A stretch of DNA of 64,000 nucleotides from the NCBI RefSeq assembly GCF_056746865.1, contig NZ_CM163382.1; one strand, 5' to 3'. The notes beneath the pieces are model-generated. The model was given only the letters and a program-made list of their open reading frames with translations, was not told the DNA's origin and made no database searches. Positions 2,712 to 60,600 of the stretch are shown here, piece by piece. Within the stretch, counting starts at the first letter, position 1. Each line of letters begins with the position of its first letter. Made by a program: the position numbers and the translations under genes.

Positions 2712-2975
2712 ATGCCTACCAGTGTATCCCTCAGTCCTTACTTTGAAACGTTTATCCGCGAACAAATAGAAAGTGGTCGGTACAACAATACAAGTGAAGT
2801 CATTCGTGCCGGACTTCGTGCTCTGGAAGAACGGGAACAGCAGATAAAGCTTGAATCACTCCAGAGCGCCGTGGCCGCAGGCATCAACAGCGGTGAAAGT
2901 AAAAGTGCTGAAGAGGTATTCGGGCGACTGACGCACAAATACAAAAAGATGGCAGAAGGTGAACAGCCAATATGA
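2712..2975 (+). CDS. parD: type II antitoxin, ParD/RHH family
   Basis: 87-aa ORF (…FETFIREQIESGRYNNTSEVIRAGLRALEERE…) typical of ParD antitoxins; 4-bp ATGA overlap with the following toxin ORF. Confidence 0.75.
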   Translation: MPTSVSLSPYFETFIREQIESGRYNNTSEVIRAGLRALEEREQQIKLESLQSAVAAGINSGESKSAEEVFGRLTHKYKKMAEGEQPI

Positions 2976-3298
2976 AACTGACTGTTTCACCATTAGCAGA
3001 ACACGATCTTGAAGCTATAGGTGACTGGATCGCTCAGGATAATCCTGTCCGTGCAATCAGTTTTACCGAAGAGCTTTACCAACAATGTCTGTTGATAGCC
3101 GAATCGCCAGTACTCTACAGAGAAAGACCCGAGTTAGGGGCTGGGATCAGAGGTTGTTCGTATGGTCGTTACCTTCTGCTGTTCAGGGTACTGGATACTG
3201 AAGTTCGTATCGAACGTATCGTTCATGGTTCCCGGGATATCAACAGGGTACTTGCAGAGCCAGACGACAAACCATCAGATCATTTCTGGCAGCCATAA
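2972..3298 (+). CDS. parE: type II toxin, ParE/RelE family
   Basis: 108-aa ORF coupled to the preceding RHH antitoxin; size and C-terminal region fit ParE/RelE. Confidence 0.7.
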   Translation: MKLTVSPLAEHDLEAIGDWIAQDNPVRAISFTEELYQQCLLIAESPVLYRERPELGAGIRGCSYGRYLLLFRVLDTEVRIERIVHGSRDINRVLAEPDDKPSDHFWQP

Positions 3299-3545: not shown

Positions 3546-3564
3546 ATTCCGAGTCCGGGCACCA
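3546..3564 (+). repeat. 19-bp copy of the tRNA-Phe 3' end (ATTCCGAGTCCGGGCACCA): island att direct repeat, not a complete tRNA
   Basis: Exact match to the 3' terminal 19 nt of E. coli tRNA-Phe including CCA; upstream sequence does not match the rest of the tRNA; integrase gene begins about 200 bp downstream. Confidence 0.7.
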
Positions 3565-3576
3565 AATTCATATAAA

Positions 3577-3761: not shown

Positions 3762-5027
3762 ATGGCACTGACTGACGCAAAAATCCGGGCTGCAAAGCAC
3801 ACTGACAAGGCTTATAAACTCACTGACGGGGCTGGCATGTTCCTGCTGGTACATCCTAATGGTTCCCGTTACTGGCGTCTCCGTTATCGCATTCTGGGTA
3901 AGGAGAAAACTCTGGCACTTGGTGTATACCCGGAGGTTTCTCTCTCCGAAGCTCGTACAAAACGGGATGAGGCCCGAAAACTGATTTCGGAGGGGATTGA
4001 CCCTTGCGAACAGAAAAGAGCTAAAAAAGTAGTCCCTGATTTACAACTCTCTTTTGAACATATCGCACGACGCTGGCATGCCAGTAATAAACAATGGGCA
4101 CAATCACACAGCGATAAGGTACTCAAAAGCCTCGAAACACACGTTTTCCCCTTTATCGGCAACCGGAACATCACAACACTCAATACCCCGGACCTGCTTA
4201 TCCCTGTTCGTGCTGCAGAAGCTAAACAAATTTATGAAATCGCCAGTCGTCTGCAGCAAAGAATATCTGCTGTAATGCGTTATGCCGTACAGTCTGGCAT
4301 CATCAGATATAATCCTGCTCTGGATATGGCTGGCGCATTGACCTCTGTAAAACGACAGCATCGCCCCGCTCTTGATCTTTCACGTCTGCCTGAACTTCTG
4401 TCGCGTATTAACAGTTATAAAGGTCAGCCTGTCACCCGGCTTGCTGTTATGCTGAATTTACTGGTTTTTATTCGCTCCAGTGAACTCAGATATGCCCGCT
4501 GGGCTGAAATTGATATTGACAATTCAATGTGGACTATTCCAGCCGAACGCAAACCTCTGCCAGGGGTAAAATTCTCACACCGGGGCTCCAAGATGCGAAC
4601 ACCACATCTTGTGCCACTCAGCAAACAGGCTGTAGCCATACTGACAGAACTTCAGACATGGGCTGGTGAAAATGGTCTGATCTTTACGGGAGCACATGAC
4701 CCGCGTAAACCAATCAGTGAAAATACCGTAAATAAGGCCCTCAGAGTGATGGGGTATGACACAACCAAGGAAGTCTGTGGCCATGGATTCCGGGCGATGG
4801 CGTGCAGTGCATTGATTGAATCCGGCTTATGGTCAAGAGATGCGGTTGAACGTCAGATGAGTCATCAGGAGCGCAACGGAGTACGTGCCGCGTATATTCA
4901 TAAAGCAGAACATCTGGAAGAACGTCGGCTTATGCTGCAATGGTGGGCAGATTTTCTGGATGCAAACAGGGAGGAGTGTATCAGTCCGTTTGAATATGCA
5001 AAAGTTAACAATCCACTGAAAAGGTGA
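3762..5027 (+). CDS. int: tyrosine recombinase / P4-type phage integrase
   Basis: 421-aa ORF; N-terminus MALTDAKIRAAKHTDKAYKLTDGAGMFLLVHPNGSRYWRLRYR... is the characteristic P4-integrase N-terminal domain; C-terminal catalytic region present (…HGFRAMA…); lies next to the tRNA-Phe att repeat. Confidence 0.9.
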   Translation: MALTDAKIRAAKHTDKAYKLTDGAGMFLLVHPNGSRYWRLRYRILGKEKTLALGVYPEVSLSEARTKRDEARKLISEGIDPCEQKRAKKVVPDLQLSFEHIARRWHASNKQWAQSHSDKVLKSLETHVFPFIGNRNITTLNTPDLLIPVRAAEAKQIYEIASRLQQRISAVMRYAVQSGIIRYNPALDMAGALTSVKRQHRPALDLSRLPELLSRINSYKGQPVTRLAVMLNLLVFIRSSELRYARWAEIDIDNSMWTIPAERKPLPGVKFSHRGSKMRTPHLVPLSKQAVAILTELQTWAGENGLIFTGAHDPRKPISENTVNKALRVMGYDTTKEVCGHGFRAMACSALIESGLWSRDAVERQMSHQERNGVRAAYIHKAEHLEERRLMLQWWADFLDANREECISPFEYAKVNNPLKR

Positions 5028-8966: not shown

Positions 8967-11033
<2,067 letters not shown>

Positions 11034-18515: not shown

Positions 18516-18716
18516 GCAAAATGGCATCTGAATCGATCGCAGTTTGGCATTCGAATCGATCATGATTTGGCATCCATCTCCGATCACAGTTTGGCATCAC
18601 AATCGATCACGATTTGGCATGCTTCCGATCATTGATTGGCATCCTGCCAGTCACTCCGGGAATTAACTCTTTTCACCACAGTCTCCATTGCCGTGTTTAA
18701 ACCAGTGGAGACGTCA

Positions 18717-20282: not shown

Positions 20283-20298
20283 CAGAAGGAACAACAGT

Positions 20299-21054: not shown

Positions 21055-21144
21055 AAAGCGGTAGAAAAAGTTAAGTTCCCGGTTGATCGAATGGATGCGA
21101 ATCGCTGATCGGACTTCGATGCCAATCCGTGATCGAATAGAGCG

Positions 21145-23554
21145 GAATACGCACCAGACGGTACACGGAGAGGCACATAACACCCGACTGGAGGGGGGTA
21201 ACCAGTATGTACACAACGGTGGCACGGCAACAGAGACGCTGATAAACCGTGATGGCTGGCAGATGATTAAGGAAGGAGGAACTGCCGCGCATACCACCAT
21301 CAACCAGAAAGGAAAGCTGCAGGTGAATGCCGGCGGTAAAGCGTCTGATGTCACCCAGAACACGGGCGGTGCACTGGTTACCAGTACAGCTGCAACCGTC
21401 ACCGGCACAAACCGCCTGGGAGCATTCTCCGTTGTGGCGGGTAAGGCTGATAATGTCGTACTGGAAAATGGCGGACGTCTGGATGTGCTGAGCGGACACA
21501 CAGCCACTAATACCCGTGTGGATGATGGCGGAACGCTGGATGTCCGCAACGGTGGTGCCGCCACCACCGTATCCATGGGGAATGGCGGTGTACTGCTGGC
21601 CGATTCCGGTGCCGCTGTCAGTGGTACCCGGAGCGACGGAACGGCATTCCATATCGGAGGCGGTCAGGCGGATGCCCTGATGCTGGAAAAAGGCAGTTCA
21701 TTCACGCTGAACGCCGGTGATACGGCCACGGATACCACGGTAAATGGCGGATTGTTCACTGCCAGAGGGGGCTCGCTGGCGGGCACCACCACGCTGAATA
21801 ACGGTGCCACGCTTATCCTTTCCGGGAAAACGGTAAATAACGATACCCTGACCATCCGTGAAGGTGATGCACTCCTGCAGGGAGGCGCTCTTACCGGTAA
21901 CGGCAGGGTGGAAAAATCAGGAAGTGGCACACTCACTGTCAGCAACACCACACTCACCCAGAAAACCGTCAACCTGAATGAAGGCACGCTGACGCTGAAC
22001 AACAGTACCGTCACCACGGATGTCATCGCTCAGCGCGGCACGGCCCTGAAGCTGACCGGCAGCACAGTGCTGAACGGTGCCATTGACCCCACGAATGTCA
22101 TCCTGACATCCGGTGCCACCTGGAATATCCCCGATAACGCCACGGTTCAGTCGGTGGTGGATGACCTCAGCCATGCCGGACAGATTCATTTCACCTCCGC
22201 CCGCACAGGGAAGTTCGTTCCGACAACTCTGCAGGTGAAAAACCTGAACGGGCAGAATGGCACCATCAGCCTGCGTGTACGCCCGGATATGGCGCAGAAC
22301 AATGCTGACAGACTGGTCATTGACGGTGGCAGGGCAACCGGAAAAACCATCCTGAATCTGGTGAACGCCGGCAACAGTGGTACGGGGCTGGCGACCACCG
22401 GTAAGGGTATTCAGGTGGTTGAGGCCATTAACGGTGCCACCACGGAGGAAGGGGCTTTTGTCCAGGGGAATATGTTGCAGGCCGGGGCCTTTAACTACAC
22501 CCTCAACCGGGACAGTGATGAGAGCTGGTATCTGCGCAGTGAAGAACGTTATCGTGCTGAAGTCCCCCTGTACGCCTCCATGCTGACACAGGCAATGGAC
22601 TATGACCGGATTCTGGCAGGCTCCCGCAGCCATCAGACCGGTGTAAACGGTGAAAATAACAGCGTCCGTCTCAGCATTCAGGGCGGCCATCTCGGTCACG
22701 ATAACAACGGCGGTATTGCCCGTGGGGCCACGCCGGAAAGCAGCGGCAGCTATGGCTTCGTCCGTCTGGAGAGTGACCTGCTCAGAACAGAGGTCGCCGG
22801 TATGTCACTGACGACAGGAGTGTATGGTGCTGCAGGCCATTCTTCCGTTGATGTTAAGGATGATGACGGCTCCCGCGCCGGCACGGTCCGGGATGATGCC
22901 GGCAGCCTGGGCGGATATATGAACCTGACACACACCTCCTCCGGCCTGTGGGCTGACATTGTGGCACAGGGAACCCGCCACAGTATGAAAGCGTCATCGG
23001 GCAATAACGACTTCCGCGCACGGGGCTGGGGCTGGCTGGGCTCACTGGAAACCGGTCTGCCCTTCAGTATCACTGACAACCTGATGCTGGAGCCACGGCT
23101 GCAGTACACCTGGCAGGGGCTTTCGCTGGATGACGGTAAGGACAACGCCGGTTATGTGAAGTTCGGGCATGGCAGTGCACAACATGTGCGTGCCGGTTTC
23201 CGTCTGGGCAGCCACAACGATATGACCTTTGGTGAAGGCACCTCATCCCGTGCCCCCCTGCGTGACAGTGCAAAACACAGTGTGCGTGAACTGCCGGTGA
23301 ACTGGTGGGTACAGCCTTCCGTTATCCGCACCTTCAGCTCCCGGGGTGATATGCGTGTGGGGACCTCCACCGCAGGCAGCGGGATGACGTTCTCACCCTC
23401 ACAGAATGGCACTTCACTGGATCTGCAGGCAGGACTGGAAGCCCGTGTCCGGGAAAATATCACCCTGGGCGTTCAGGCCGGTTATGCCCACAGCGTCAGC
23501 GGCAGCAGCGCTGAAGGCTATAACGGTCAGGCCACGCTGAATGTGACCTTCTGA
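21145..23554 (+). pseudogene. flu: antigen 43 (Ag43) autotransporter, 3' portion (rest of passenger domain plus beta-barrel)
   Basis: Reading frame resumes with …HQTVHGEAHNTRLEGGNQYVHNGGTATE… and continues to the canonical autotransporter C-terminus …GYNGQATLNVTF. Confidence 0.85.
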
Positions 23555-29361: not shown

Positions 29362-29730
29362 GTGTCAGACACACTCCCCGGGACAACACTTCCCGACGAC
29401 AATCACGACCGCCCCTGGTGGGGGCTGCCCTGCACCGTGACGCCCTGTTTCGGGGCACGTCTGGTGCAGGAGGGTAACCGGTTGCATTACCTTGCCGACC
29501 GCGCCGGTATCAGAGGCCTGTACAGCAATGCAGATGCGTACCACCTGGACCAGGCCTTTCCGCTGCTGATGAAACAACTGGAACTCATGCTCACCAGCGG
29601 TGAACTGAATCCCCGCCATCAGCATACCGTCACGCTGTATGCAAAAGGGCTGACCTGCAAAGCCGATACCCTCAGCAGTTGTGGTTACGTTTATCTGGCT
29701 GTTTATCCGACGCCCGAAATGAAAAATTAA
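29362..29730 (+). CDS. cbeA: CbeA/YeeU-family antitoxin, second copy (GTG start)
   Basis: 122 aa; MSDTLPGTTLPDDNHDRPWWGLPCTVTPCFGARLVQEGNRLHYLADRAGIRG…; near-identical to 194..568. Confidence 0.85.
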   Translation: MSDTLPGTTLPDDNHDRPWWGLPCTVTPCFGARLVQEGNRLHYLADRAGIRGLYSNADAYHLDQAFPLLMKQLELMLTSGELNPRHQHTVTLYAKGLTCKADTLSSCGYVYLAVYPTPEMKN

Positions 29731-29818: not shown

Positions 29819-30196
29819 ATGAAAACATTACCTGTATTACCCGGGCAGGCGGCCAGTTCTCGCCCGTCTCCTGTTGAAATCTGGCAGATACTTCTGTCCC
29901 GACTGCTGGACCAGCACTACGGCCTCACACTGAATGACACACCGTTTGCCGATGAACGTGTGATCGAGCAGCATATTGAGGCAGGCATTTCACTGTGTGA
30001 TGCGGTGAACTTTCTCGTGGAAAAATACGCGCTGGTGCGTACCGACCAGCCGGGATTCAGCGCCTGTACCCGCTCTCAGTTAATAAACAGCATCGATATC
30101 CTCCGGGCTCGCAGGGCGACCGGCCTGATGACCCGCGACAATTACAGAACGGTAAATAATATTATCCTGGGTAAGCACCCGGAGGTGAAACAATGA
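29819..30196 (+). CDS. cbtA: CbtA/YeeV-family toxin, second copy
   Basis: 125 aa; near-identical to 615..992. Confidence 0.85.
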   Translation: MKTLPVLPGQAASSRPSPVEIWQILLSRLLDQHYGLTLNDTPFADERVIEQHIEAGISLCDAVNFLVEKYALVRTDQPGFSACTRSQLINSIDILRARRATGLMTRDNYRTVNNIILGKHPEVKQ

Positions 30197-30816
30197 AACT
30201 TTCCCTGACGCCGGAAGCCGACAGCGTTAACGTACAGGCACTGAATATGGGGCGCATTGTCGTTGACGTCGATGGTATTAATCTCGCTGAACTGATTAAC
30301 AAGGTCGCTGAAAACGGTTATTCACTCCGCGTGGTGGATGAATCTGACCAACAGTCAACCTGCACTCCACAACCGTTTACGACTCTTTCCGGCATACGCT
30401 GCAGTACCGCACATATCACGGAAAAGGACAACGCCTGGCTGTACTCGCTGTTACACCAGACCAGTGACTTTGGTGAATCAGAATGGATTCATTTTACCGG
30501 TACCGGTTATCTGTTACGTTCCGTCGTCTGGTCGTCACACTCATCCGGCGTTATGGTGTCAGTCTCATTCATCTGGATGCCAGTGCCAGATGTCTGCCAG
30601 GTTTACCCACTTTCGACTGGTAATCCGGAAATTCACAACATGAAATCATTAACCACGGAAACAGCGCTGGATATTCTGATTACGTGGCTGCAGGACAATA
30701 TCGACTGCGAATCGGGAATTATCTTCGACAACGATGAGGATAAAACAGATTCGGCAGCACTGTTGCCCTGTATCGAACAGGCCAGGGAGGGTATCCGTAC
30801 CCTGCGCCAACAGTAA
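30193..30816 (+). CDS. yeeW: YeeW-like protein fused in frame to the small downstream protein (deletion variant)
   Basis: 207-aa ORF; relative to copy 1 a stretch of about 58 bp is missing in the yeeW 3' region, placing yeeW and the MKSLTTETALDIL… ORF in one frame. Confidence 0.5.
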   Translation: MKLSLTPEADSVNVQALNMGRIVVDVDGINLAELINKVAENGYSLRVVDESDQQSTCTPQPFTTLSGIRCSTAHITEKDNAWLYSLLHQTSDFGESEWIHFTGTGYLLRSVVWSSHSSGVMVSVSFIWMPVPDVCQVYPLSTGNPEIHNMKSLTTETALDILITWLQDNIDCESGIIFDNDEDKTDSAALLPCIEQAREGIRTLRQQ

Positions 30817-30915
30817 CTTTTGCACCAGAACCAGTGAAGATCACTCACCCGATTTCACTTCCCTGACGTCAGCCTGAACACGGCTGGCGTTTTCATTTAT
30901 AAACAGAAAGGAAAA

Positions 30916-31155
30916 ATGATGATGTCAGATACCACACACTCCCGCCCGGAGGTGGTGAGCGGGCATACGGACGTTATCTATTCCACCTCAGTCTGCCACA
31001 TTCTGGCTGTACGAAAAAGTATACTGCTGCAAATCGACACACTTATCCGGCAACTGGCTGAAATCTCAGTTCTGACGGAAAGCATTGGAGGTAAAACCGG
31101 CCTGAACTGGTCGAGAAAGCAGGGTTTTCGCTGCGGTTGTTGGCTGATTGAGTAA
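30916..31155 (+). pseudogene. truncated copy of the DUF4942-like island gene (N-terminal 79 codons)
   Basis: Homology to 1774..2640 ends at about 31180, where the kpsS 3' end begins. Confidence 0.55.
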
Positions 31156-31177
31156 CCTGAAACGCCCATGAAAACCA

Positions 31178-32407
31178 TCATCTGCTACCGTTTAGGAATG
31201 CGGACCTTCTATTGCTTTTTGATTTTACACCATAATAAACAGCATTAATTTGCGTCTTCATCAATAAATATTCACGAAACTTCTTAAACAGTTTCATATC
31301 TGGTTTAAAATCGGCCTGCCAGAATTGGTGCAAATGCCCTTGATACGTCAACCCCTTGATGTCGTACAGAGCATTACCCATCACTTTGAGTGGTTTGTTA
31401 TGAATCAGTGCAGAGATCCCCACTGTACTGTTAATTGTCACAACCGCTTTTGCATGGCGTAATAATTCCGGCATTGGGAGATCGTGTACGTATATGACTC
31501 GCTCGCCTAAGCCATATTCCTTACTCAACCGCTTAATTAATGGTCGATAGAGTCTGTGACCGCGATCCATCGGATGGTGTTTGATCACCAAATAACTCTC
31601 TTTCGGTGCCTTATGCGAAAATGAATATACAACTTCGTTAATATAATCACGCACATCATTATAATTACTGTGATTACGAATTTGGCTATCATTATAAACT
31701 TGTAAAATAACAAGATAGTAACGTTGGTCCAGATCATTCACTAACCGAGCCAATACATTACGTTGCATTATTTTGTAAAATAGCTTACGCCAGTACGCAC
31801 GCCCCCAGCAACGAGCCTCATACCAAGGAGAAAATGATTTGTGATGACGGTAGCGAGTGAATTCATGTCGGTAATGCCATCCCATCAGGTAATACCACAT
31901 TGCATGACCAATACGTTTCATCGTCGAGGGTTTTAAGTTCTCAACATGTGGTGCAGGCATATCTGGTAATTTACGATAAAAGTCAGGATCGCGCGGCAGC
32001 GATGAATACGCGTTTACACCGTCCTCTTCAACAGTAATAAATTGCGGACGTAAATATCCTTCTTCAAATGCCAGAAAGCGGATCCCTTTAGACTTCGCCC
32101 AACGTTTTGCTTCTTTGTGCAATGGACGGCAGTCACCAAAACAGAGAATGGTATCAAAGTCAAATTGCCGGTGGATATCTCGTAACCAACCAGGAAATTC
32201 TTTCGGCGTTTGGTAATAAGCCAGATAGTGTCGATGACGGCAGTAAAAACGATCTCCTCCATTGAATACAACATTCACAGCGTTACGACCTAATGACTCT
32301 AACCACTCGGCAACATCATTGAAGAAAGGTCCCATCGGTCCCTGCAATAGCAGATATTTTTTACCAGATAATAAAATGCTCAGAGCATTATTTTTCATAA
32401 TAATCAA
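31178..32407 (-). CDS. kpsS: capsule polysaccharide biosynthesis protein KpsS
   Basis: 409 aa; …LLSGKKYLLLQGPMGPFF…LAFEEGYLRP… recognised as KpsS. Confidence 0.85.
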   Translation of the reverse strand: MIIMKNNALSILLSGKKYLLLQGPMGPFFNDVAEWLESLGRNAVNVVFNGGDRFYCRHRHYLAYYQTPKEFPGWLRDIHRQFDFDTILCFGDCRPLHKEAKRWAKSKGIRFLAFEEGYLRPQFITVEEDGVNAYSSLPRDPDFYRKLPDMPAPHVENLKPSTMKRIGHAMWYYLMGWHYRHEFTRYRHHKSFSPWYEARCWGRAYWRKLFYKIMQRNVLARLVNDLDQRYYLVILQVYNDSQIRNHSNYNDVRDYINEVVYSFSHKAPKESYLVIKHHPMDRGHRLYRPLIKRLSKEYGLGERVIYVHDLPMPELLRHAKAVVTINSTVGISALIHNKPLKVMGNALYDIKGLTYQGHLHQFWQADFKPDMKLFKKFREYLLMKTQINAVYYGVKSKSNRRSAFLNGSR

Positions 32408-33560
32408 GTAATAGTTGACAATAAAATTTATCAGTTCAGTAAAATTATAAGAATATAATTAATTTCCGTTAACAGCGTATAACTCGTTTCTTTTTTCTGA
32501 TAAAAAATCGAATTTGATTGATGTTTGAAGTAAATATTTCAAAGATTATCCAACCGCAATAGGCTCCAGCCGTATTGGGAGCATAAAATATTGGATAAGC
32601 ACAGATCGCATCTGCGAATCTTAATCTACGCCCGTGACGTGGGGAAAATGGTATACACCAACATTATATCTGTATTAAATTCTAGATTTTCAAGTGTCTG
32701 TCATTTCCTTTAAAAAAGAAAGCGTCGCCATAAACACTCTCTAAACAAAAAACCTATAAGAATAGAATTTATTATAGAACCAAGACGGTTTAGAAACACA
32801 TCTATTACCAAACACTGAACATAACTCTAAACAACATTGAATAAAAATTAATGACTTTTAATATATTTCATATAGTGTATCCTCTGGAGAGCAATATATT
32901 AATCGCTACAGAACGGTTATTAAAAAATATAGAACCAGTGATTGAATCAAAATGACCGATAAACAGTTCAGCAAAGTATAGCAACAGTGACATTTGTTAT
33001 AACAATGATTTTTACTACACGCAAAATATTAACATCACTAAAGTAATGAAAAAACATATTTATCTAAGCACAAAAATACAATATATAGCACATTATAAAA
33101 TAGAATTAAAACAAACCGTAACAACCATGATGCTATATTAATAGTTAAAATATTTTTAGTAAAAGATAAATTACCCCCATTAAAAATTCAAAACTGATGT
33201 TAGTTAACTCATAAGATCCTGCTAATTGATATAACTACGCCCCATGGGATAATGTTTTAATAACAGAACATTATCAGAAAACTGATCCCTCCAAATTTAA
33301 TTATTTTCTTGCTTATTTTATCAATAAAATAGAGTTCTGAAAAGTTATCTTATCTGAAAATATATTAGTGCCATATAGTAACAAAAAATATCAACCTTGC
33401 ATAATGATTTTAACTGTTCAAATAGTGCTCTACCCACATATCACGGGTGACATTTAATATATTTCCTTTGATACTCTACCAATAATAATTTATTGCTGAT
33501 TGTTTAATCACATAATCCCAAACTGCCCTGCAATAATATATTAACTCACAAAAAAAATCA

Positions 33561-35708
33561 TCAGGGTAAAAGTGAACGAAAAAGTCTCAAAGTTTGAGCA
33601 AAAGAAACTAACTTAATTCGCCAACGCTGCCACCACTTAACACCTGCCGTCGTAGCTTTTTTTTGAGTAGATAATAGATGAATTAATTGTTCAGGGCTGC
33701 ACCAAAGCCCTGACTTCCAATCTATATAACGCGGATATTTTACTAATGTAATATATGCTAATGCACTCAACGTTAATGTACGATGGCGTCTTTCTGATGG
33801 ATGCTTATCTTGTGTTAATCCCCAACCACTATAAAACGGCTGTCCCCATGTCGTAACCTTCACTCCTTGAACTAGTGCCTCAAATCCACTAAGCGAAGTC
33901 ATGGTATGTAACTCATTTATGTGTGGATATAGCGATTCCAGTCTAATATCAGATACTTGGCTATCAACACAGTGTGCTAAACAACGCGCCGAAATAGTAC
34001 CTTTTCGATTGCCAGATACCACATCCGGATGAGGTTTGAACAGAATATGTGCATTCGGTTTAGCTTCACGCACAGCCCACAACAACTGTTCATTGCTGCG
34101 GATAATCGGGCTACCACACAAAATGGATGCATCACCATCAACCTGACCAACCACTAGAATCAACTCACGTCCGTCGTTAGGGGGCTCATATTCTTGTGTA
34201 CTCCCCACATTGTATTTACTGACTCGTGATGATTGTAATTGCGCTAATAATGACTCTGCGCGTGCTTCTTCTTTCGCATCTAAAACGTACGTAGTGAGTA
34301 ACTGCTCAAGCTTACTCGGACGGCGGCTATCAAAATAGATTCCAACGGGGTCAATCGAGAGTGATGAAGGTCGACATAAATTAGACCCCAATCCGTTGGA
34401 GCGGATAAAACCATCTTCAATCCGGATCACTGATTGCAGTTCAGGATAACGGTTTCCCCACACCAACACCTGTTCATCATCTTTTAACTGTGAGGGCACA
34501 GTACGAACAAAACAAAGTTCATCTGCCAAATACGCACAAAATGTGCGTATAAAAGCACGCTTCCACAGAGAAAAACCAACGAGATAAAGACGACGCCAAG
34601 GTTTGGGCTCTACCTGCTGCTGAGCCAAAATCGCTACAACATCTTCTACCTCACAACGTTTTCCCAATATAGGATCTAAATAACGCGGATAACGGATCAA
34701 CGCCGCCGCAACTAAGCGGGGCAATGAAATAGATGAAACGCCTTCGGCTGACATTGCTTCTTCACGGCGTATACAACGTTTACTGTCATGCGTTAACCCC
34801 CACCCAGCATAAAATGGCATACCGAAGCAATATACAGGTTTGCCCAACAGCAACGCTTCAAAGCCAACCTGCGATGAAACTGTGTACACCGCATCCACCA
34901 TACGAATTATTCTATGCGGATGGCAAGGTTCACTCACCACCTCAACATCAGCCAGTCGAGGATCACGCCCCACTAAACGTGCTAACACGCCGCTTTTTTT
35001 GCTAAAGCGTGTATCTGGGTGTGTTCGCAACAATAGACGCGCATTAGGGTGATTACGGCGAGCCTCGACCACCATAGAAACAAAATCAGCTTCGCAAGCA
35101 AGAGCCCCAGAAATTGACAAGTCTCCCGCTACTTGATCCACAAGCAAAATACGCGGTCTTGGATCATCCAGTAAACGTGCTAAGTTTGAATGAGCCGTGA
35201 GGGTGAATAACTCAGGTTGTATATGTGTCGGTAAATCTAAAGAAGGCCCGTCAGTAGCACGGACAGAGCCATTAAATGTATGCTCAGTGCTATTGGTATA
35301 GCAGTTATACTTGGTGATTCCTAAACGCAAAATATCAGAGATCAGATGCTCAGCGCGCGCAAGTAAAGCCGTATCAACAGGTTCAATAATAAGCTGTTCT
35401 AATTGACTCGTCTGATGTGCATCATAATATATCCCCAGAGGGTCAGCAATAAGAGAAACCGCCTTTCCTCCTTTTGCTGGGTGCCCGATATAGCCAATAA
35501 AACCATCTTCAAGTTGCCAATAAGATATTCCTAACTCTTGAGCTTTCTGTTTAATCTGCTTAGTATTAGATTTTTTTCCCCAGCCAACTAAAACGTCATT
35601 TTTAGAAAAAGCCTCGTCTCCTTTCATATAAAGCAATGGGTGACCAAGCATAGGCTCAATATTATTTTTTCTGGCAAGAATCCCTTTCGATCCCGTATAT
35701 AAATACAT
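33561..35708 (-). CDS. kpsC: capsule polysaccharide biosynthesis protein KpsC (two-domain)
   Basis: 715 aa; duplicated-domain architecture with motifs …LEDGFIGY… and …IEDGFIRSNGLGS…, …PHPDV…GNRKG…, …HTMTSLSGFEAL…; exact start codon uncertain. Confidence 0.85.
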   Translation of the reverse strand: MYLYTGSKGILARKNNIEPMLGHPLLYMKGDEAFSKNDVLVGWGKKSNTKQIKQKAQELGISYWQLEDGFIGYIGHPAKGGKAVSLIADPLGIYYDAHQTSQLEQLIIEPVDTALLARAEHLISDILRLGITKYNCYTNSTEHTFNGSVRATDGPSLDLPTHIQPELFTLTAHSNLARLLDDPRPRILLVDQVAGDLSISGALACEADFVSMVVEARRNHPNARLLLRTHPDTRFSKKSGVLARLVGRDPRLADVEVVSEPCHPHRIIRMVDAVYTVSSQVGFEALLLGKPVYCFGMPFYAGWGLTHDSKRCIRREEAMSAEGVSSISLPRLVAAALIRYPRYLDPILGKRCEVEDVVAILAQQQVEPKPWRRLYLVGFSLWKRAFIRTFCAYLADELCFVRTVPSQLKDDEQVLVWGNRYPELQSVIRIEDGFIRSNGLGSNLCRPSSLSIDPVGIYFDSRRPSKLEQLLTTYVLDAKEEARAESLLAQLQSSRVSKYNVGSTQEYEPPNDGRELILVVGQVDGDASILCGSPIIRSNEQLLWAVREAKPNAHILFKPHPDVVSGNRKGTISARCLAHCVDSQVSDIRLESLYPHINELHTMTSLSGFEALVQGVKVTTWGQPFYSGWGLTQDKHPSERRHRTLTLSALAYITLVKYPRYIDWKSGLWCSPEQLIHLLSTQKKATTAGVKWWQRWRIKLVSFAQTLRLFRSLLP

Positions 35709-43071: not shown

Positions 43072-43174
43072 AATATAACTTACAGTCCAAAGTAACAGAT
43101 GGGGGATACAGATCCTTATTAGCAGGCCTGTAGATAAGAGCAGAAATAAACACCAAAGCGCTTGCTCAATATAT

Positions 43175-44586: not shown

Positions 44587-44713
44587 GATAATCCCAAGTT
44601 TTTATGGGATATACATAACTATGGATACAACCAAGAAAAATGATTTTGCCTCAATGGAAGAAATTACGGTAATAGAATTCCATTATCCCATTTACAATCC
44701 ACTGCTACGTTAT

Positions 44714-45910: not shown

Positions 45911-45928
45911 ATATATTTTTTACAAGTA

Positions 45929-47209: not shown

Positions 47210-47215
47210 TAAATT

Positions 47216-48445: not shown

Positions 48446-48456
48446 TCTACTTAAAA

Positions 48457-50874: not shown

Positions 50875-50876
50875 TT

Positions 50877-53746: not shown

Positions 53747-54949
53747 TCAATCCTGGTGCTCACGCAAAGTTGCCAGCCCCATAATAATAAGACCATAGAA
53801 CAAGCAAAGTAATACACCCACAGTCGCAAGATTATAGAATCGCCGTGGATATTCGGCATCTTCCGCTAAAGTTGGTTGGGTAATAACCAATAGGTGCTTA
53901 AGTTTACGATATGCCTCAACCCGCGTCTGCTCTAAGCTGATAAGGCCAGTTTTGTAGAGATCCGCTGCCAAGGTTGCCTGCGTTTGCACATCCATGTAAC
54001 CGGCGGTGATTTCATTCATGGCATCGTTATCTTGACCAGTCAGCTTAGCACGCTCCTGTTCAAGCTGCTTGGTTAGGGCGTCAACTCGGCTCTGTAATGA
54101 GACTACGGCCGGTGCGGTTTCCTTCATATAGCTGCGCAGTTGTTTTAGCTCCGCCTGTTGACGCACCAGCTCTCCTTCAATCTGGCTGACCACTCCTAAG
54201 CGTGCGCTGCTGGTAGATTCAGGGCTGAGAAGTTGGTGGCTATTCTGAAATGCTAATACTTTAGCTTTTTCATCCTGTAAGCGTTGATATGCTCTATTTA
54301 CTTCTTTTTCAACAAAGGCCAATTGTTCGAGCGCAACCTGATGACCTAATTTGTTAATAAAACGCTCCGATTCTTTGAGCATTAACTCAACAACTCGCTG
54401 ACCGTATTGGGGATCAAATGTCTGCAACTCAACGGTAAGTACTCCTGATAATTCATCAAGATGTAACGTCAAATGTTTGCGGTAATAATCAAGAAAATCC
54501 TCCCTACTGACTCCCTTATGCAACCGCGAGAAATAATCTGCACTATCACTCTGGAAATGTGCTTTAAGTGCAAGTTCTTTGTCCAACTTGGCCAGCATAT
54601 CCCATGACTTCATATAATCCTGAACGAGTAATATATCCTGATGATTACTACCACCGATCCCTAACATTGATAACGCATCAGGCAACATTTTAACTTGATC
54701 GGCTTGTTTAATCATTAATTCAGCCCGGCTCACATAACGATCGGAAGCAATGAAGCCAAAATAGAGCACTGCGATAGAAAAGCAGATAACTACCCAAAGA
54801 AAACTGCCTAGCTGTAAACTTTTCTTCCACGAGCGGTGTACAATTTGATATCCTCTCGAATCAATCAAAAATAGTTTTGGATTATTGCTCAGTTTTCTTA
54901 ACTTTCGCGCAAGGCGAGATATTGAGGATGAAGAATTCGGAGATGTCAT
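53747..54949 (-). CDS. kpsE: capsule export inner-membrane protein KpsE
   Basis: ORF 53747..55006; start at MTSPN (54949) avoids overlap with kpsT; N-terminal TM segment then long periplasmic helical region and C-terminal hydrophobic segment. Confidence 0.7.
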   Translation of the reverse strand: MTSPNSSSSISRLARKLRKLSNNPKLFLIDSRGYQIVHRSWKKSLQLGSFLWVVICFSIAVLYFGFIASDRYVSRAELMIKQADQVKMLPDALSMLGIGGSNHQDILLVQDYMKSWDMLAKLDKELALKAHFQSDSADYFSRLHKGVSREDFLDYYRKHLTLHLDELSGVLTVELQTFDPQYGQRVVELMLKESERFINKLGHQVALEQLAFVEKEVNRAYQRLQDEKAKVLAFQNSHQLLSPESTSSARLGVVSQIEGELVRQQAELKQLRSYMKETAPAVVSLQSRVDALTKQLEQERAKLTGQDNDAMNEITAGYMDVQTQATLAADLYKTGLISLEQTRVEAYRKLKHLLVITQPTLAEDAEYPRRFYNLATVGVLLCLFYGLIIMGLATLREHQD

Positions 54950-54962
54950 AATCAGTTGCTGC

Positions 54963-55613
54963 TCAAAGTGACTGGTAAATTTTGATGGCATCATCAATAT
55001 TATCAAAAACTTCTAATTTACCATCACGTAACAAGATGCCCATATCGCATTGTTGTCGTAGATTTTTCATATCATGTGAAACCATAATCAAACTAGCTGT
55101 TTCTCGCTTTTTGTTAAATACATCAATACATTTTTGTTTAAAACGTGCATCACCTACTGAGGTAATTTCATCGGTAAGATATATATCAAAATCAAAAGCC
55201 ATACTAACAGCAAAAGAAAATTTTGATTTCATGCCGCTAGAGTATGTTTTAATAGGCAACTCATAATGTTGTCCAATTTCAGAAAACTCTTTAACCCACT
55301 CTTCTACGGTGCTTGTATCGCGTACACCATGAATGCGGCAAACAAATCGCGTGTTTTCACGACCAGTCATACTACCTTGAAATCCCCCACCTAGTGCTAG
55401 AGGCCAAGATACTCGGCAGAGACGAGTTACTTTCCCCCTGTTAGGCGTATCCATCCCTCCTAACAAACGTAACAAAGTAGATTTTCCTGCTCCATTGATA
55501 CCTAGAATACCTATATTACGGTCCCTTGGTAGCTCAATATTTACATTCCTCAGGACATAATTTCGTCCAAATTTAGTCGGATAATATTTTGATACATTAT
55601 CAAGAATAATCAT
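54963..55613 (-). CDS. kpsT: capsule ABC transporter ATP-binding protein KpsT
   Basis: 216 aa; Walker A GINGAGKST, ABC signature YSSGMKSKF, Walker B IYLTDE. Confidence 0.9.
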   Translation of the reverse strand: MIILDNVSKYYPTKFGRNYVLRNVNIELPRDRNIGILGINGAGKSTLLRLLGGMDTPNRGKVTRLCRVSWPLALGGGFQGSMTGRENTRFVCRIHGVRDTSTVEEWVKEFSEIGQHYELPIKTYSSGMKSKFSFAVSMAFDFDIYLTDEITSVGDARFKQKCIDVFNKKRETASLIMVSHDMKNLRQQCDMGILLRDGKLEVFDNIDDAIKIYQSL

Positions 55614-55624: not shown

Positions 55625-56425
55625 CTAACTAGCAATCAATTGGCGATGCCGTAATCGGTAACAACTCATAGCAAAAGTGAGCAATAATAAGGTGACAACC
55701 GACAGATACGCCCAACTTACATCAGGACTACGATAACCAGATATCCATGCCCTTCGGATTAGTTCTACAGCATGCACAAGTGGATTCCATAAAAACCAAT
55801 GCTGATATTGAGGGGGAATAGTAGCAAGAGGAAACATAACACAAGAGATAAACATCAAAGGCATCATTAACAAGCTAAGAAATTTATCTGCCTCTTTCGC
55901 TAAGTTACAAATAACACAAAATACAATACCAAGAGAAAAAGAAAACAGCATCAGAAGAGAATAACCAAGGATCACTTGCAATGGATCCGCAGGTATTGCA
56001 TCAAAGCCAAACCACAATAATCCTAGTACTAGGATGATACCGACAATCATGCCCACCATTGTTTCTAGCATAAAACGTGCTATAAAAGTTGCAAAAGGAG
56101 TCACTTGTCTATAACAAAAAAGTCCCATATTAGCATTGACAGCAGATTTCAACTGAGTCACAACTTTATTGAAAAACATGAAAGGTAAATAACCAGCAGT
56201 AATAAAAACCTGGGCTGGGACACCACCAAAGCCACTTTGGCTTCTCATCCCAAATACTACACTGAACAGGCTAATCATTAATAATGGGTCAAGTAATGCC
56301 CAAGCATAACCTAGTCGGTAATTACCAAATCTTGTTTTTAGCTCACGAATTAATAAGCCAAATACTACATCACGTAATACTTGCAAAGAAGTGCGTGGAG
56401 TTTGACTAATAATGGGTTTGTCCAT
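55625..56425 (-). CDS. kpsM: capsule ABC transporter permease KpsM
   Basis: 266 aa; ABC-2 type permease with six predicted TM segments; immediately upstream of kpsT. Confidence 0.9.
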   Translation of the reverse strand: MDKPIISQTPRTSLQVLRDVVFGLLIRELKTRFGNYRLGYAWALLDPLLMISLFSVVFGMRSQSGFGGVPAQVFITAGYLPFMFFNKVVTQLKSAVNANMGLFCYRQVTPFATFIARFMLETMVGMIVGIILVLGLLWFGFDAIPADPLQVILGYSLLMLFSFSLGIVFCVICNLAKEADKFLSLLMMPLMFISCVMFPLATIPPQYQHWFLWNPLVHAVELIRRAWISGYRSPDVSWAYLSVVTLLLLTFAMSCYRLRHRQLIAS

Positions 56426-56491: not shown

Positions 56492-58237
56492 TCATTTAAT
56501 AGCAACGTTAGCAGCTACAGCGATTTGATAAATAATTTGTGTGATATCTTTAAATGATTGCATGGTTTTGCTATCAACCTGAGGTAGAACCAATATCTGA
56601 TCCCCCGGTTGTACTTTACCTTGCCCTTTAAATTCTACAAGACCATTTGCATGTACAATAGCAATTCGCTTGTCGTTAGCTCGCTCAGTAAAACCTCCGG
56701 CCCATGCAACATAATCATCCAAATTAGCATCGGCATTATATACTACTGCTTGTGGCATCAACACTTCACCACCCACTTGAATAAGATCAGTCTTATTTGG
56801 AATAACTATTTGATCGCCTTGTTCTAATTGGATATTGGCAATAACACCTTTATCTGCAACTACTACTTTACCAAGCGGTTGAACTTTACGAGCCTTTTCA
56901 ACAAACTGCATCACTAACTCTGCTTCTTTAGCACGTATATTCGCCTCACCATCAGATCGCGCGGGTGTGGTAAATACACTACGTTCCAAGCGGTTTAGAG
57001 ATTCATCCAGCATCTCTTTTTGTCTTGCAGCCACACTCTTTCGTATCAGATAAATTGATTGATAATCCGCAAGCTCTGGGTCAATAGGGATATAGTTCAA
57101 TAAATCATGCAATTTAGTTTGCTTACGAACCGTGAAATATGACGGTCCCATATAACTGCCTGATACTTGTATATCATATACTTGTGCATGCATGTCATCA
57201 TTAAAAAGTACTTTGTCACCGTCTTTAAGTTGAAGACGTGTAAAATCTTTATACGGCAAGTAGACGGAAAACGGGCCGCTTTCCCTGTCGCCAATCACAC
57301 CGACATGACTGACTTTTGCGAGAGGAAGTGCATAATTCACCAATTCAGAGCCTAATGCATTGCGCTGGGTAAGCTCAAATCGGAATGGGTTTCGAACCTT
57401 TCCCGCAACATTGATCATTGGACCTTGTTGCTCAACTAAAATCACATCTTGATCTTTTAATGCCAGCTTCGGGAGTTTCCCATACCGTATGAAATCATAA
57501 AGATCAATTTGCTGTATTACTCTATTTTGTCGTAACACCTTAATTTTTCGATAACTTCCACGGTCAGAATCTATTCCACCGGCACGTTTTAAAAAATACA
57601 ATATACTATCAGAAGATTGTCCTGCATACTGCCCAGGACGAATTACAGGCCCCGTAACGAATACACTTACAGGGGTTGCAGTCAAAAGATTTACGTAAGT
57701 ATTTACATTATTGGTAAATACATCACCGATCTTACTTGCCACCAACTGATTAACTTGGCTTGCAGGAACATTTTTTACATTTATTGGACCTACATCAGGT
57801 ATGAAAATATTTCCTTGATTATCTACCGTAACCACATTAGAGAAATTGACCGCTCCCCAAATCCAGATATTTAACTTATCCCCAGGAGCAATCAAATAAT
57901 TATCGCTTAAGCCGTCACTCCTTTCTGTTTCATAGCCTCCGGCAAATAAATTAGCACCATACGGAGGAGGTAAGCCTGCTTCAGATTGCGGCAGTAATTT
58001 TCGTACATCTGACTCTCCTGGAAGCAACATCCCATTACGATTCTGTTGTGTGAAGCTTCCTGTTGTGGAGGTTGTATTAGGCTGTCCAGTGATGTCTGCT
58101 AGCATTTTCCGAGACTCTCCTGTCGAGGCAGCAAGATCATAATCTAAATGTGAACCATTAGATTGATTTTGCTCTATTGCGGCGAATGCTGATGCAGAAA
58201 TAAGAAAGAGAAGAGTGCTAAGTTGCGAAATTTTCAT
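56492..58237 (-). CDS. kpsD: capsule polysaccharide export protein KpsD (Wza-like)
   Basis: 581 aa with signal peptide (MKISQLSTLLFLISASAFA); polysaccharide-export family regions; first recognisable kps gene of a kpsD-M-T-E block. Confidence 0.8.
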   Translation of the reverse strand: MKISQLSTLLFLISASAFAAIEQNQSNGSHLDYDLAASTGESRKMLADITGQPNTTSTTGSFTQQNRNGMLLPGESDVRKLLPQSEAGLPPPYGANLFAGGYETERSDGLSDNYLIAPGDKLNIWIWGAVNFSNVVTVDNQGNIFIPDVGPINVKNVPASQVNQLVASKIGDVFTNNVNTYVNLLTATPVSVFVTGPVIRPGQYAGQSSDSILYFLKRAGGIDSDRGSYRKIKVLRQNRVIQQIDLYDFIRYGKLPKLALKDQDVILVEQQGPMINVAGKVRNPFRFELTQRNALGSELVNYALPLAKVSHVGVIGDRESGPFSVYLPYKDFTRLQLKDGDKVLFNDDMHAQVYDIQVSGSYMGPSYFTVRKQTKLHDLLNYIPIDPELADYQSIYLIRKSVAARQKEMLDESLNRLERSVFTTPARSDGEANIRAKEAELVMQFVEKARKVQPLGKVVVADKGVIANIQLEQGDQIVIPNKTDLIQVGGEVLMPQAVVYNADANLDDYVAWAGGFTERANDKRIAIVHANGLVEFKGQGKVQPGDQILVLPQVDSKTMQSFKDITQIIYQIAVAANVAIK

Positions 58238-58635: not shown

Positions 58636-59565
58636 TTTAAAACGTTATCCAAAAGTTGATAGTATGTAAAACAATTACCTTCTATTATTGATACTCTGAC
58701 AGATATCAATAATAGCCCATAAATATAAGATATTTAAAATTATAACCACACAAATTAATCATAGATGTTGCTAGTATAAGATTGACTTTAGTCAACTGGT
58801 GTTTACATCATCTGTTTATAACTAATTACGAATATATCCTTTATCTTTTGGATATGTACTACATATGCAACACACATCCCTAAAAATATTATTTTTATGG
58901 CCCCGTATATTGCTATCTTTTTTTTATAAAATTTAATAATAACAACCATATGGAAGAGAAAATCCCTCTTATACATAAAGAGGGATCAATTAAATAAATT
59001 TGTTTTGTAATGACTCAGTAAGGCATAGACGTTTTCATAAATTCTTAAATTACTATCCCCAAAAATCTAAGTCCTGAAAAACTTTAACACTCTAATATTT
59101 TCATGAGCCGTTCAGCACACCCTCAACTTCGATAAAAAATGCTAACTAGTAAATAATTGTCGCAATAATAATAGTCGTACTTTATCAATAACAGATAAAC
59201 AAAAATAATAAAAAAGAGGGGAGATACACTTGCGATAGAATGGCGGCTTCTTGCCCCCCTTTGCCCGGTCCTGACTAGCATGGCTGGAGTCAGTGTCAGG
59301 CCACGACCATGCTCATCATGGAAGCAGCTTTTGTAGTACACTTCGCAGCTTATTTTCCTGGAACGAAATGTCTGGCATCGTGGTGCATAACATAACCCCC
59401 AATGCCCAGCAGATGCACAGAAGGTTCTAGAATCGCCCACTGATATCCCATACAAAATTTACCAAAACGTGTTCGTATTTCTCGTATAAATAATGTCTCT
59501 ATGGTGACGTTCTAGACTTCAAACCCACTTTTTGAATTTGATGATGTGCTCCTAATCTCTTCAGG

Positions 59566-59577
59566 AATGCTACCGCC
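59566..59577 (-). promoter_or_regulatory. ops-like element (GGCGGTAGCATT on the minus strand) in the kps leader; candidate RfaH recruitment site
   Basis: Reverse complement of 59566-59577 reads GGCGGTAGCATT, matching the ops core GGCGGTAG; lies about 930 bp upstream of the first ORF of the kpsD-M-T-E block. Confidence 0.4.
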
Positions 59578-60062
59578 CCTGGCTTTACAGCTACCAATAC
59601 ACTGGAGGTATACTTATCTGCAACTGGATGAACTAGATATACTTGAGCAAACATTTCATAAGCTCGACGAACAGTTTTCGTAGAAATTATTTTCCTTATT
59701 TAAAATTCACTTATTGATTATCTCTAGGAATTTTACTAATTTCCAAGTCACATAAAATACAGATCACACAAGAATTATCCTATATGCTTTAACCTATCAA
59801 TTATTACTCAATGATTCATTACAACTATTAATAATCATAATGCGTCAAAACACTTAAGCAACTTTACAGTCTGAGAAAGGTGTCGATTCACAAGGACTGC
59901 ATAGTGAAAAACGAATTCCTACAGTATTATCGAACATTCCGTGGTGGTCTGGAGGGAGATAACCCTTGCTACATCGGAACTCAGCCCGGTGAGCGGGTTT
60001 GACAGTTCCGCACTCACCTTTGGGCTAAGGTTATCAGGTGGGGTTTAAGGGGATGGCAATAC

Positions 60063-60599: not shown

Positions 60600-60600
60600 G

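Follow-up and report, generated by a model that had tools for sequence, protein, structure and literature searches.

An old recombination scar as the likely left boundary of the chromosomal group 3A kps locus of Escherichia coli

The stretch of E. coli DNA analysed here (64,000 nucleotides, hereafter the window) carries two copies of the end module of a CP4-44-type island. Copy 1 closes island 1 and is intact, whereas copy 2, on the right-hand side of island 2, stops inside a DUF4942 gene at the 3' end of the capsule gene kpsS, which lies on the opposite strand (Table 1). How did an island come to end within one of its own genes and against a capsule locus? The original prediction held that a deletion or recombination had removed the right end of island 2 and joined it to the capsule locus. 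The right end has indeed been lost, by illegitimate recombination, but this did not happen in the present strain. Instead, the segment is likely to be a scar left by an old illegitimate recombination, and this scar is now a fixed boundary on the left of the chromosomal 3A kps locus of E. coli.

Table 1. Features of the window that bear on the joint between island 2 and the capsule locus
Feature	Position	Strand	Basis
Copy 1 yeeW (DUF5983), intact, 163 aa	989..1480	+	ORF
Copy 1 small DUF957-type ORF, 65 aa	1492..1689	+	Sequence
Copy 1 DUF4942 gene, intact, 288 aa	1774..2640	+	Pfam DUF4942 residues 87-276, E=2e-69
Copy 1 end cargo: parD-parE toxin-antitoxin pair	2712..3298	+	Pfam ParE_toxin for 2972-3298
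att repeat (3' end of tRNA-Phe)	3547..3564	+	1 match; 0.03 expected by chance
Island 2 integrase, 421 aa, tyrosine recombinase	3762..5027	+	Pfam Arm-DNA-bind_3, Phage_int_M, Phage_integrase
Copy 2 cbeA (yeeU) antitoxin, intact	29362..29730	+	Pfam CbeA_antitoxin E=1.7e-52; PGAP, identical DNA
Copy 2 cbtA (yeeV) toxin, intact	29819..30196	+	Pfam CbtA_toxin E=3.2e-58; PGAP annotation
Copy 2 yeeW (DUF5983) predicted pseudogene, deletion at 30518/30519	30193..30623	+	Alignments; PGAP 'DUF5983 family protein, frameshifted'
Read-through ORF, 207 aa: yeeW N-terminus, out-of-frame stretch, DUF957	30193..30816	+	ORF
Copy 2 DUF957-type gene, own ATG, intact	30640..30816	+	PGAP WP_000839288.1, identical DNA; alignment to copy 1
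Terminator-like hairpin 3' of DUF957, kept in both copies	30865..30891	+	Hairpin and copy alignment
DUF4942 5' fragment	30916..31189	+	Alignments; PGAP 'incomplete; missing C-terminus'
Recombination joint	31178..31192	.	BLAST end points 31178-31189 and position-by-position comparison
kpsS, group 3A locus, 406 aa	31178..32398	-	Pfam Capsule_synth residues 83-389, full profile covered
Segment with 3A-specific kpsS tail, protein VKSKSNRRSAFLNGSR	31183..31245	-	In exactly 101 genomes, nowhere else
Decayed 3' end of group 2-type kpsC, upstream of kpsS	32427..32601	-	blastn vs strain C4, 71%, indels
kpsC, group 3 type, 715 aa	33561..35708	-	37% identity to group 2 KpsC
kpsE, region 1	53747..55006	-	ORF
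kpsT, region 1	54963..55613	-	ORF
kpsM, region 1	55625..56425	-	ORF
kpsD, region 1	56492..58237	-	ORF
Group 2 kpsM 5' end and upstream remnant	59357..59632	-	blastn 83% identity to strain C4; collinear with yghD

Copy 1 provides the standard of comparison within the window. Its yeeW encodes the DUF5983_N domain and the complete C-terminal domain of DUF5983 (Pfam positions 3-90 of 90). The small ORF that follows gave no Pfam match at E≤0.001, and PGAP labels its homologous CDS in related genomes as DUF957. A stretch of strain Eco_70239 that is 99.85% identical to the end-cargo region of copy 1 carries annotations for ParD and ParE. Mean identity in the alignment of copy 1 (900-2200) with copy 2 (30100-31300) is 86%. 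The att repeat closes island 1 on its right and opens island 2 on its left. In strain C4 the same 18-mer forms the 3' terminus of pheV, and in strains Eco_70239 and AVS0575 it serves as the island-end repeat; it is the only part of pheV in the window, the gene itself lying beyond it. In Eco_70239, which has no capsule, DUF4942 is followed by parDE, the att repeat, pheV-downstream DNA, and then yghD. Strain C4 shows the order pheV, IS110 fragment, kpsF through kpsM, and yghD. PAI V of strain 536 and the island of AVS0575 are pheV islands beside group 2 loci, in which the island at pheV is followed by kps and then by yghD and gsp, as is the case here. AVS0575 keeps the full DUF4942 gene, its cargo (DUF6088 and AbiEii), the att repeat, pheV-downstream DNA, and an IS110 fragment before kpsF, while the 3A locus is without all of these. 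Compared with the intact ends, DUF4942 in copy 2 thus lacks its 3' two-thirds, and the end cargo, att repeat, and pheV-downstream DNA are gone.

Island 2 resembles the P4-like cryptic islands CP4-44, CP4-57, and CP4-6 (yeeS-yeeT-yeeU-yeeV-yeeW), with which it shares the integrase type, the tRNA-derived att repeat adjoined by the integrase at the left end, and the gene order antirestriction, RadC, DUF987, CbeA, CbtA, DUF5983, DUF957, and DUF4942. Its right-end module (antirestriction, radC, yeeT, cbeA, cbtA, yeeW, DUF957, and DUF4942) was called from the PGAP annotation of identical DNA and from Pfam, with yeeW frameshifted and DUF4942 truncated. Unlike CP4-type islands, it has no right-bounding att direct repeat, which is present in the intact comparators, and it ends inside DUF4942, fused to a capsule gene. 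When the window was searched for a second copy of TTCCGAGTCCGGGCACCA with up to 3 mismatches allowed, the copy at 3547-3564 remained the sole match, which agrees with the original prediction that the junction has no att repeat; near the DUF4942/kpsS joint of four other 3A genomes no att repeat was found either. As island 2 is without a right-hand att partner, its precise excision should fail, which suggests that the island is locked in place. The cbeA and cbtA genes of copy 2 lie side by side and are both full-length by Pfam, as in a predicted type IV toxin-antitoxin system. This pair and DUF957 would still be intact, while yeeW and DUF4942 are presumably dead.

About 89 of the 288 codons of DUF4942 are left in copy 2, and an internal TAA is located at 31153-31155. 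The entire Pfam domain is absent from the fragment, for which a Pfam search gives no match. BLAST alignments to full DUF4942 genes stop at 31178-31189, and a position-by-position comparison by eye extends the similarity to 31189-31192, a break point that rests on decaying similarity (approximately 75-80% over the last 20 nt), neither parent sequence having been found. The stop codon of kpsS is the complement of 31178-31180, and the joint thus lies 9-12 nt inside kpsS, whose stop and last three codons (GSR) overlap antisense DUF4942-derived island DNA. The homology had originally been described as ending exactly at the end of kpsS; the truncation beside kpsS stands, and only its position has to be shifted into the gene. 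Judged by its sequence, the DUF4942/kpsS joint is non-homologous. A minus-strand terminator 3' of kpsS was looked for, and no convincing candidate emerged.

The alignment of copy 2 with copy 1 contains one further lesion, a 58-bp gap in copy 2 yeeW, whose borders are CTGTT/ACGTACC and CAAAA/ACGTTCC (slash at the border) with a microhomology of 4 bp (ACGT). Strain 2547, a closer relative, is about 98% identical near this site and retains the 58 bp, so a deletion occurred in copy 2 rather than an insertion in copy 1. The copy alignment and strain 2547 thus both agree with the earlier claim that about 58 bp are missing from copy 2 yeeW between ACGT repeats. As 58 is not divisible by 3, the reading frame shifts past the old yeeW stop and into the DUF957 frame. 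The fusion of yeeW with the small downstream ORF, as it had been described, does exist as an ORF of 207 aa, but it is a frameshift by-product: what is left of yeeW is a predicted frameshifted pseudogene, and DUF957 retains its own start and its usual PGAP annotation. The yeeW gene of CP4-44 in K-12 is also a pseudogene.

Neither lesion is specific to this genome. Among the complete RefSeq E. coli genomes (n=5,426), the junction-spanning query, the 3A-type kpsS with its spacer, and the 3A-specific kpsS tail were each found in exactly 101 genomes, three sets that agree in number and were compared by count, not name by name. KpsS tails are hypervariable across the family after the motif NAVYYG, and 3A and group 2 KpsS share one 90%-identity cluster in the protein database, so that such clusters cannot single out the 3A tail. 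Every complete E. coli genome with this capsule locus has the DUF4942/kpsS joint (101/101), the tail was found in no other context among complete E. coli genomes, and a 24-nt piece of it had no match in one genome per bacterial species. The comparison of strains sharing the capsule locus, which had been proposed along with the original prediction, was thereby carried out, and no surveyed complete E. coli genome with a 3A capsule locus keeps the missing island end. About 102 records contain the 58-bp deletion allele, as do all four of the other 3A genomes examined, and a 96-97% identical yeeW that retains the 58 bp was found in more than 900 genomes. The genomes with both joint and deletion (about 101) are of human, cattle, poultry, pet, yak, and monkey origin, and the structure recurs across different K types, in genomes with a region 2 unlike that of the window. 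Near the joint, the compared 3A genomes differ by few SNPs and zero indels, with a SNP density of 0.4-0.75% in the island remnant versus 0.08% in kpsS. The island-end module from about 28007 onward was co-inherited with kps in all genomes examined; beyond this point to the left, the island sequence varies among 3A genomes (81-96% identity). The structure is far beyond chance because it is present in 101 independent complete assemblies, the agreement of which also rules out an assembly artefact.

The capsule locus itself is a typical group 3A kps locus (K10, K54, K96, and related types) at the chromosomal serA-linked site between pheV and yghD/gsp, and no difference from these loci was noted. 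Region 1 (kpsD-kpsM-kpsT-kpsE) and region 3 (kpsC-kpsS) surround a variable region 2, which here starts with rmlBDAC, and the locus adjoins the yghD and gsp genes at 60063-63999, which are collinear with strains C4 and Eco_70239. A chromosomal location of 3A loci has been described (PMC10433991). The ORFs of regions 1 and 3 match the Pfam families Poly_export/SLBB, ABC2_membrane, ABC_tran, and Capsule_synth; kpsE gave no significant Pfam match and was assigned by the PGAP label 'polysaccharide transporter' on homologous DNA. The locus combines a kpsS of group 2A ancestry with a group 3-type kpsC. The 3A KpsS has 92% amino-acid identity to group 2 KpsS, and 3A kpsS stems from the 2A lineage (PMC13171606, citing Hong et al. 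2019). KpsC is 66-68% identical to the KpsC proteins of Aeromonas, Leclercia, and Enterobacter, and the Aeromonas and Leclercia relatives have their own adjacent kpsS, just 37-59% identical to 3A KpsS. On the yghD side, the kpsM remnant has 70% identity over KpsM residues 2-55, with one stop codon and a 3-residue gap (tblastn), and a 425-bp flank is common to 3A and group 2 strains and absent from K-12. The orientation of kpsS relative to pheV and yghD is the reverse of that of group 2 kpsS.

The scar probably originated as follows. The ancestor would have carried a pheV-associated CP4-44/CP4-57-type island with a P4-type integrase and an end composed of yeeW, DUF957, DUF4942, cargo, and att. 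When the 3A mosaic arose or was installed at the site between pheV and yghD, the island would have lost its cargo, its att repeat, and all but the 5' third of DUF4942, and the pheV-downstream DNA would have disappeared as well. A group 2 kps locus resident there would have been mostly lost in the same step, a loss made probable by the group 2 kpsM fragment that survives beside yghD. The original prediction had named the island end only; the pheV-downstream DNA is also gone, and the loss probably included most of that group 2 locus. The kpsM fragment together with the group-2-derived kpsC'-kpsS unit suggests that the 3A mosaic replaced both the island end and the resident group 2 locus. The break would have fallen within the hypervariable 3' tail of kpsS, so that the full catalytic domain was kept and three codons plus the stop were supplied by antisense DUF4942. 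In a separate event, a slippage-type 58-bp deletion between the ACGT microrepeats would have inactivated yeeW, with the read-through as a by-product, and both lesions are passed on with the capsule locus as one haplotype that extends leftward to about 28007. We infer this order of events. Since kpsS is reversed with respect to group 2, an in-place deletion alone would be insufficient, and an inversion or an assembly elsewhere would also be needed.

Other explanations have to be weighed against this one. Implicit in the original prediction was a recent deletion, private to the strain, that joined an intact island to the capsule locus. Seen from the window alone, where copy 1 has an intact end and copy 2 does not, such a view has some appeal, but the joint and the 58-bp deletion in about 101 complete genomes of varied hosts and K types refute it, and it deserves practically no credence. 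It is also highly improbable that selection maintains the yeeW-DUF957 read-through ORF as a functional fusion protein. The ORF is open and conserved in all 3A genomes examined, and part of it is called a CDS by PGAP in two other genomes, as a 161-aa 'DUF5983 family protein' (WP_464365045.1). Its conservation, however, is due to its tight linkage to kpsS, and about 40 of its residues (roughly 110-149) are an out-of-frame translation. The DUF5983 N-terminal domain is complete, but half of the C-terminal domain is gone, with positions 3-42 of 90 left (Pfam). The start codon of DUF957, the more than 900 genomes that retain the intact allele, and the higher SNP density of the island remnant than of kpsS likewise argue against a functional fusion.

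Quite improbable, too, is a composite island, in which the 3A capsule was cargo of island 2 that had been inserted into DUF4942 in an earlier host, the unit then reaching the pheV att and losing its right-hand att afterwards. An intact integrase directly adjoining the att repeat, a module inherited with kps from about 28007 onward, and a 3A tail that complete E. coli genomes hold nowhere outside the joint are all consistent with this model. On the other hand, the decayed kpsM 5' end and the 425-bp yghD flank are in their original orientation, which points to in-place replacement rather than site-specific arrival. Moreover, the divergence to the left of 28007 shows that island 2 and kps are not one conserved unit, and a right-hand att is absent, even in degenerate form, from the window and from the vicinity of the joint in the four other 3A genomes. 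A possible but unlikely reading, taken with all its steps and corollaries, is that the DUF4942'/kpsS joint is an inversion joint marking the in-place origin of the 3A locus. By this account, a group 2 locus resident by the pheV island would have inverted between DUF4942 and the kpsS tail and would then have been mostly overwritten by an Aeromonas/Leclercia-like group 3 cluster, leaving three group 2 relics, namely kpsS (functional and reversed), a kpsC 3' stub, and a kpsM 5' stub. If this were true, the 3.2-kb remnant that accompanies the locus, with its intact cbeA-cbtA pair, could be a left homology arm or addiction module for the horizontal spread of the capsule locus, and read-through from kpsS would run antisense to the cbeA-cbtA module.

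Under the preferred reading of an old scar, the left boundary of the E. coli 3A locus is fixed to a few bases (31189-31192), and the C-terminus of KpsS is partly island-encoded with its catalytic domain untouched. The scar also explains the frameshifted DUF5983 gene and the partial hypothetical protein that PGAP annotates beside kpsS in every 3A genome, and it appears that the joint with the island remnant belongs to the usual haplotype of 3A loci. The scar is ordinary and already annotated; it adds detail to the published view of 3A loci as mosaics with group 2 parts and has little significance past bookkeeping. This flank is not discussed in the recent group 3 capsule papers that were checked. 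The case teaches that, in genome scans, an island found truncated beside a virulence locus calls for a population check before a strain-specific reading is adopted. As for the K10 cluster, Clarke, Pearce, and Roberts reportedly found it in 1999 to be flanked by a phiR73-like prophage and an IS3 element.

The window covers E. coli DNA from between pheV and yghD (features are listed in the table), and the order of its capsule genes, kpsDMTE / region 2 / kpsCS, places it in group 3, chromosomal subgroup 3A (PMC10433991). Among E. coli group 3A capsule loci it is typical, and a CP4-44-type island remnant flanks it. Two copies of a cbeA-cbtA-yeeW-DUF957-DUF4942 module form the right ends of island 1 (copy 1) and island 2 (copy 2), and the DUF4942 fragment of copy 2 meets the 3' end of kpsS.

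Features of the islands, the capsule locus, and its flanks (window coordinates unless stated otherwise)
Feature	Position	Strand	Remark
cbeA, copy 1	194-568		right end of island 1
cbtA, copy 1	between cbeA (194-568) and yeeW (989-1480)		
yeeW, copy 1	989-1480		
Small DUF957-type ORF, copy 1	1492-1689		
DUF4942, copy 1	1774-2640		
parDE, copy 1	2712-3298		
att	3547-3564		18-nt repeat of tRNA-Phe 3' end
Integrase, island 2	3762-5027		opens island 2
Copy 2 module	29175 to about 31190		closes island 2
161-aa read-through CDS (WP_464365045.1)	30331-30816		PGAP; 7092-7577 and 5932-6417 in the stretches compared from two other genomes
kpsS	31178-32398	minus	
Decayed group 2 kpsC 3' end	32427-32601		just upstream of kpsS
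kpsC	33561-35708	minus	
rmlCADB, then other region 2 genes	beyond kpsC	minus	
kpsE, kpsT, kpsM, kpsD	after region 2, up to 58237	minus	
Decayed group 2-type kpsM 5' end and upstream region	59357-59632	minus	between group 3 kpsD promoter region and yghD
yghD and gsp genes	from 60063		

BLAST alignments of full DUF4942 genes with the window end at 31178-31189, and in a base-by-base comparison with copy 1 the similarity runs through ...ATGAAAACCATCATCTGCTACC and is gone after 31189-31192. About 89 of the 288 codons are left in the fragment, which also has an internal TAA (31153-31155). Since the Pfam DUF4942 domain begins at residue 87, essentially the entire domain is absent. kpsS ends with a stop codon on the complement of 31178-31180; this codon and the three before it (Gly-Ser-Arg) therefore consist of antisense DUF4942-derived DNA. 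The joint lies 9-12 nt inside kpsS and not, as had been described, exactly at its end. Judged from its sequence, KpsS is undamaged by the joint: its Capsule_synth domain (residues 83-389 of 406) covers the full Pfam profile. Some sixty KpsS homologues are conserved up to ...NAVYYG, after which an unconserved tail of about 20-30 residues follows; the 3A KpsS tail has 16. The absence of an att repeat at the truncated end was borne out, as the 18-mer, searched over the whole window with up to three mismatches, matched only at 3547-3564 and nowhere after the joint. In strain 2547, a close relative of copy 2 (6323-6576 of the stretch compared) breaks off even sooner, 150 nt into DUF4942, and continues into a helix-turn-helix gene fragment and an Eco31I-type restriction-modification system; breaks at island ends seem to recur in the 5' part of DUF4942.

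The alignment of the two copies (86% identity) has a single 58-bp gap in copy 2 yeeW, between the ACGT repeats already noted (CTGTT|ACGTACC and CAAAA|ACGTTCC, 30518/30519; microhomology 4 bp). A far closer relative of copy 2, that of strain 2547 (97.8% over 30600-31052), has an intact yeeW of 162 aa with the 58 bp present, so the difference is a deletion in the copy 2 lineage. As 58 is not divisible by three, the frame shifts, the old stop is missed, and the frame of the DUF957 ORF is entered. The resulting ORF of 207 aa (30193-30816) is indeed open into DUF957, but what had been described as an in-frame fusion is a frameshift with about 40 out-of-frame residues; Pfam finds the DUF5983 N-terminal domain whole, but of the 90 positions of the C-terminal domain it matches only 3-42. 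PGAP is inconsistent on the same DNA, giving either 'DUF5983 family protein, frameshifted' with a separate DUF957 CDS or, in two other genomes, a partial DUF5983 with the 161-aa read-through CDS, labelled 'DUF5983 family protein'. By sequence, cbeA, cbtA, and DUF957 of copy 2 are intact, and its yeeW and DUF4942 are likely non-functional. The yeeW deletion is probably an independent, slippage-type lesion in DNA already free of selection.

Three queries were run against 5,426 complete E. coli genomes: one of 1.2 kb across the joint, one of only the 3A kpsS, the kpsS-kpsC spacer and the kpsC start (both at coverage of at least 80%), and a 63-bp segment with the 3A-specific kpsS tail, which had no other match. 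Each found exactly 101 genomes, the three sets agreeing in number and being compared by count rather than name by name. The yeeW deletion allele was found in about 102 records (single uninterrupted match, identity at least 99%), and more than 900 genomes have a yeeW that is 96-97% identical, with the match split by exactly 58 extra bases. Four further 3A genomes (2016C-3878, P31_YH1_02.21, PF9285, and a laboratory K96 derivative) share the frameshifted yeeW, DUF957, the partial DUF4942, and kpsS, all spaced identically; the missing island end, which was to be looked for in relatives with the same capsule locus, is kept in none of these genomes. In several of the four, region 2, i.e., the K type, is unlike that of the window. 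Strains with this haplotype are separated by a few SNPs and by no indel between about 29300 and the joint, and kpsS is near-invariant (1 SNP in 1218 bp); left of about 28007, identity among 3A genomes drops to 81-96%. Hosts of genomes with the 3A tail include humans, cattle, chickens, pets, yak, and monkey. The shared joint, deletion allele, and haplotype show that both lesions came with the 3A locus by descent and did not arise in the window strain. The original interpretation, an island end removed by deletion or recombination, was right in kind and wrong in scope. Region 2 of the window (43055-53746) has no match or only 81% identity in 2016C-3878, with both flanks 99-100% identical, and the two genomes appear to have different K types on the same 3A backbone.

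Intact ends are found in other strains. Eco_70239, which has no capsule locus, has an island end of the copy 1 type (99.85% identity to window 881-3572), in the order DUF4942, parD, parE, att repeat, native pheV-downstream sequence (CTAATTCTTAAGAACCCGCCCACAAGGCGGG...), and yghD. In AVS0575 (group 2 capsule), cbtA, yeeW, DUF957, a full DUF4942, DUF6088, AbiEii, and the att repeat (one mismatch) are followed by the native sequence, an IS110 fragment, ISEc10, kpsFEDUCS, region 2, kpsTM, and yghD. In C4 (group 2 capsule, no island), pheV is directly followed by the native sequence, the IS110 fragment, and kpsF. Compared with these three strains, the 3A arrangement is missing the remainder of DUF4942, its end cargo, the att repeat, and the DNA downstream of pheV.

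On the yghD side, 425 bp (59634-60059) are common to the window and group 2 strains and absent from K-12 and other kps-less strains. The adjacent kpsM remnant (70% protein identity over residues 2-55, one stop codon, a 3-residue gap) lies in the group 2 orientation with respect to yghD and is labelled 'ABC transporter permease' by PGAP in a near-identical genome; this decayed gene beside yghD suggests that a group 2 locus gave way to the 3A cluster. The right flank is common to 88 genomes (coverage at least 80%). KpsS is 92% identical to its group 2 counterpart and KpsC only 37%, which agrees with the 2A ancestry published for 3A kpsS (PMC13171606, citing Hong et al. 2019). The nearest KpsC relatives (66-68% identity) come from Aeromonas, Leclercia, and Enterobacter; they are followed, 10-90 bp downstream, by a kpsS of their own with only 37-59% identity to 3A KpsS. 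The kpsS-kpsC spacer (32408-33560; 1.15 kb, AT-rich, 28% GC) holds the kpsC remnant and possibly a very weak trace of a group 3-type kpsS (about 33186-33278, minus; tblastn E about 1e-4 with the short subject alone). Inside the kpsC remnant, just upstream of kpsS, promoter-like TTAACG, 17 nt, and TATAAT (32444-32472, minus; 10/12) could by consensus match be kpsS's own promoter.

The joint is most likely an illegitimate-recombination scar, left when a 3A mosaic displaced the island right end and probably also most of the group 2 locus then resident, and fixed ever since. A simple deletion is insufficient, as kpsS faces pheV, whereas group 2 kpsS at its usual position points the other way. The replacement could have been preceded by an inversion with its ends in DUF4942 and the kpsS tail, or the mosaic could have been assembled elsewhere and then imported; no parent of the 39-nt kpsS tail (31190-31228) was found in the genomes searched.

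A 1999 description of the K10 cluster reportedly placed a phiR73-like prophage and an IS3 element beside it, and three recent group 3 capsule papers do not discuss this flank. The observation is real and was accurately described, and its significance is low; the 58-bp yeeW deletion and the kpsS stop codon donated by the DUF4942 remnant appear to be the only details not traced in print, and they are small. As the island 2 integrase is intact and the right-hand att absent, precise excision should not be expected. No convincing minus-strand terminator was found after kpsS, so that antisense transcription from kps may extend into the island remnant. At the other end (3547-3600), the two islands stand in tandem, the att repeat of island 1 directly abutting the left end of island 2, where a GC-rich hairpin (AAACGGACCTCCACGGAGGTCCGTTTT) and the integrase replace the native pheV-downstream sequence of other strains. 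Two insertions in the window are absent from 2016C-3878, an IS3-family element (rve transposase; 9404-10661, at about 9.4-10.7 kb) and an IS21-family element (istA/istB; 18515-21152) that interrupts the Ag43 autotransporter gene of island 2.
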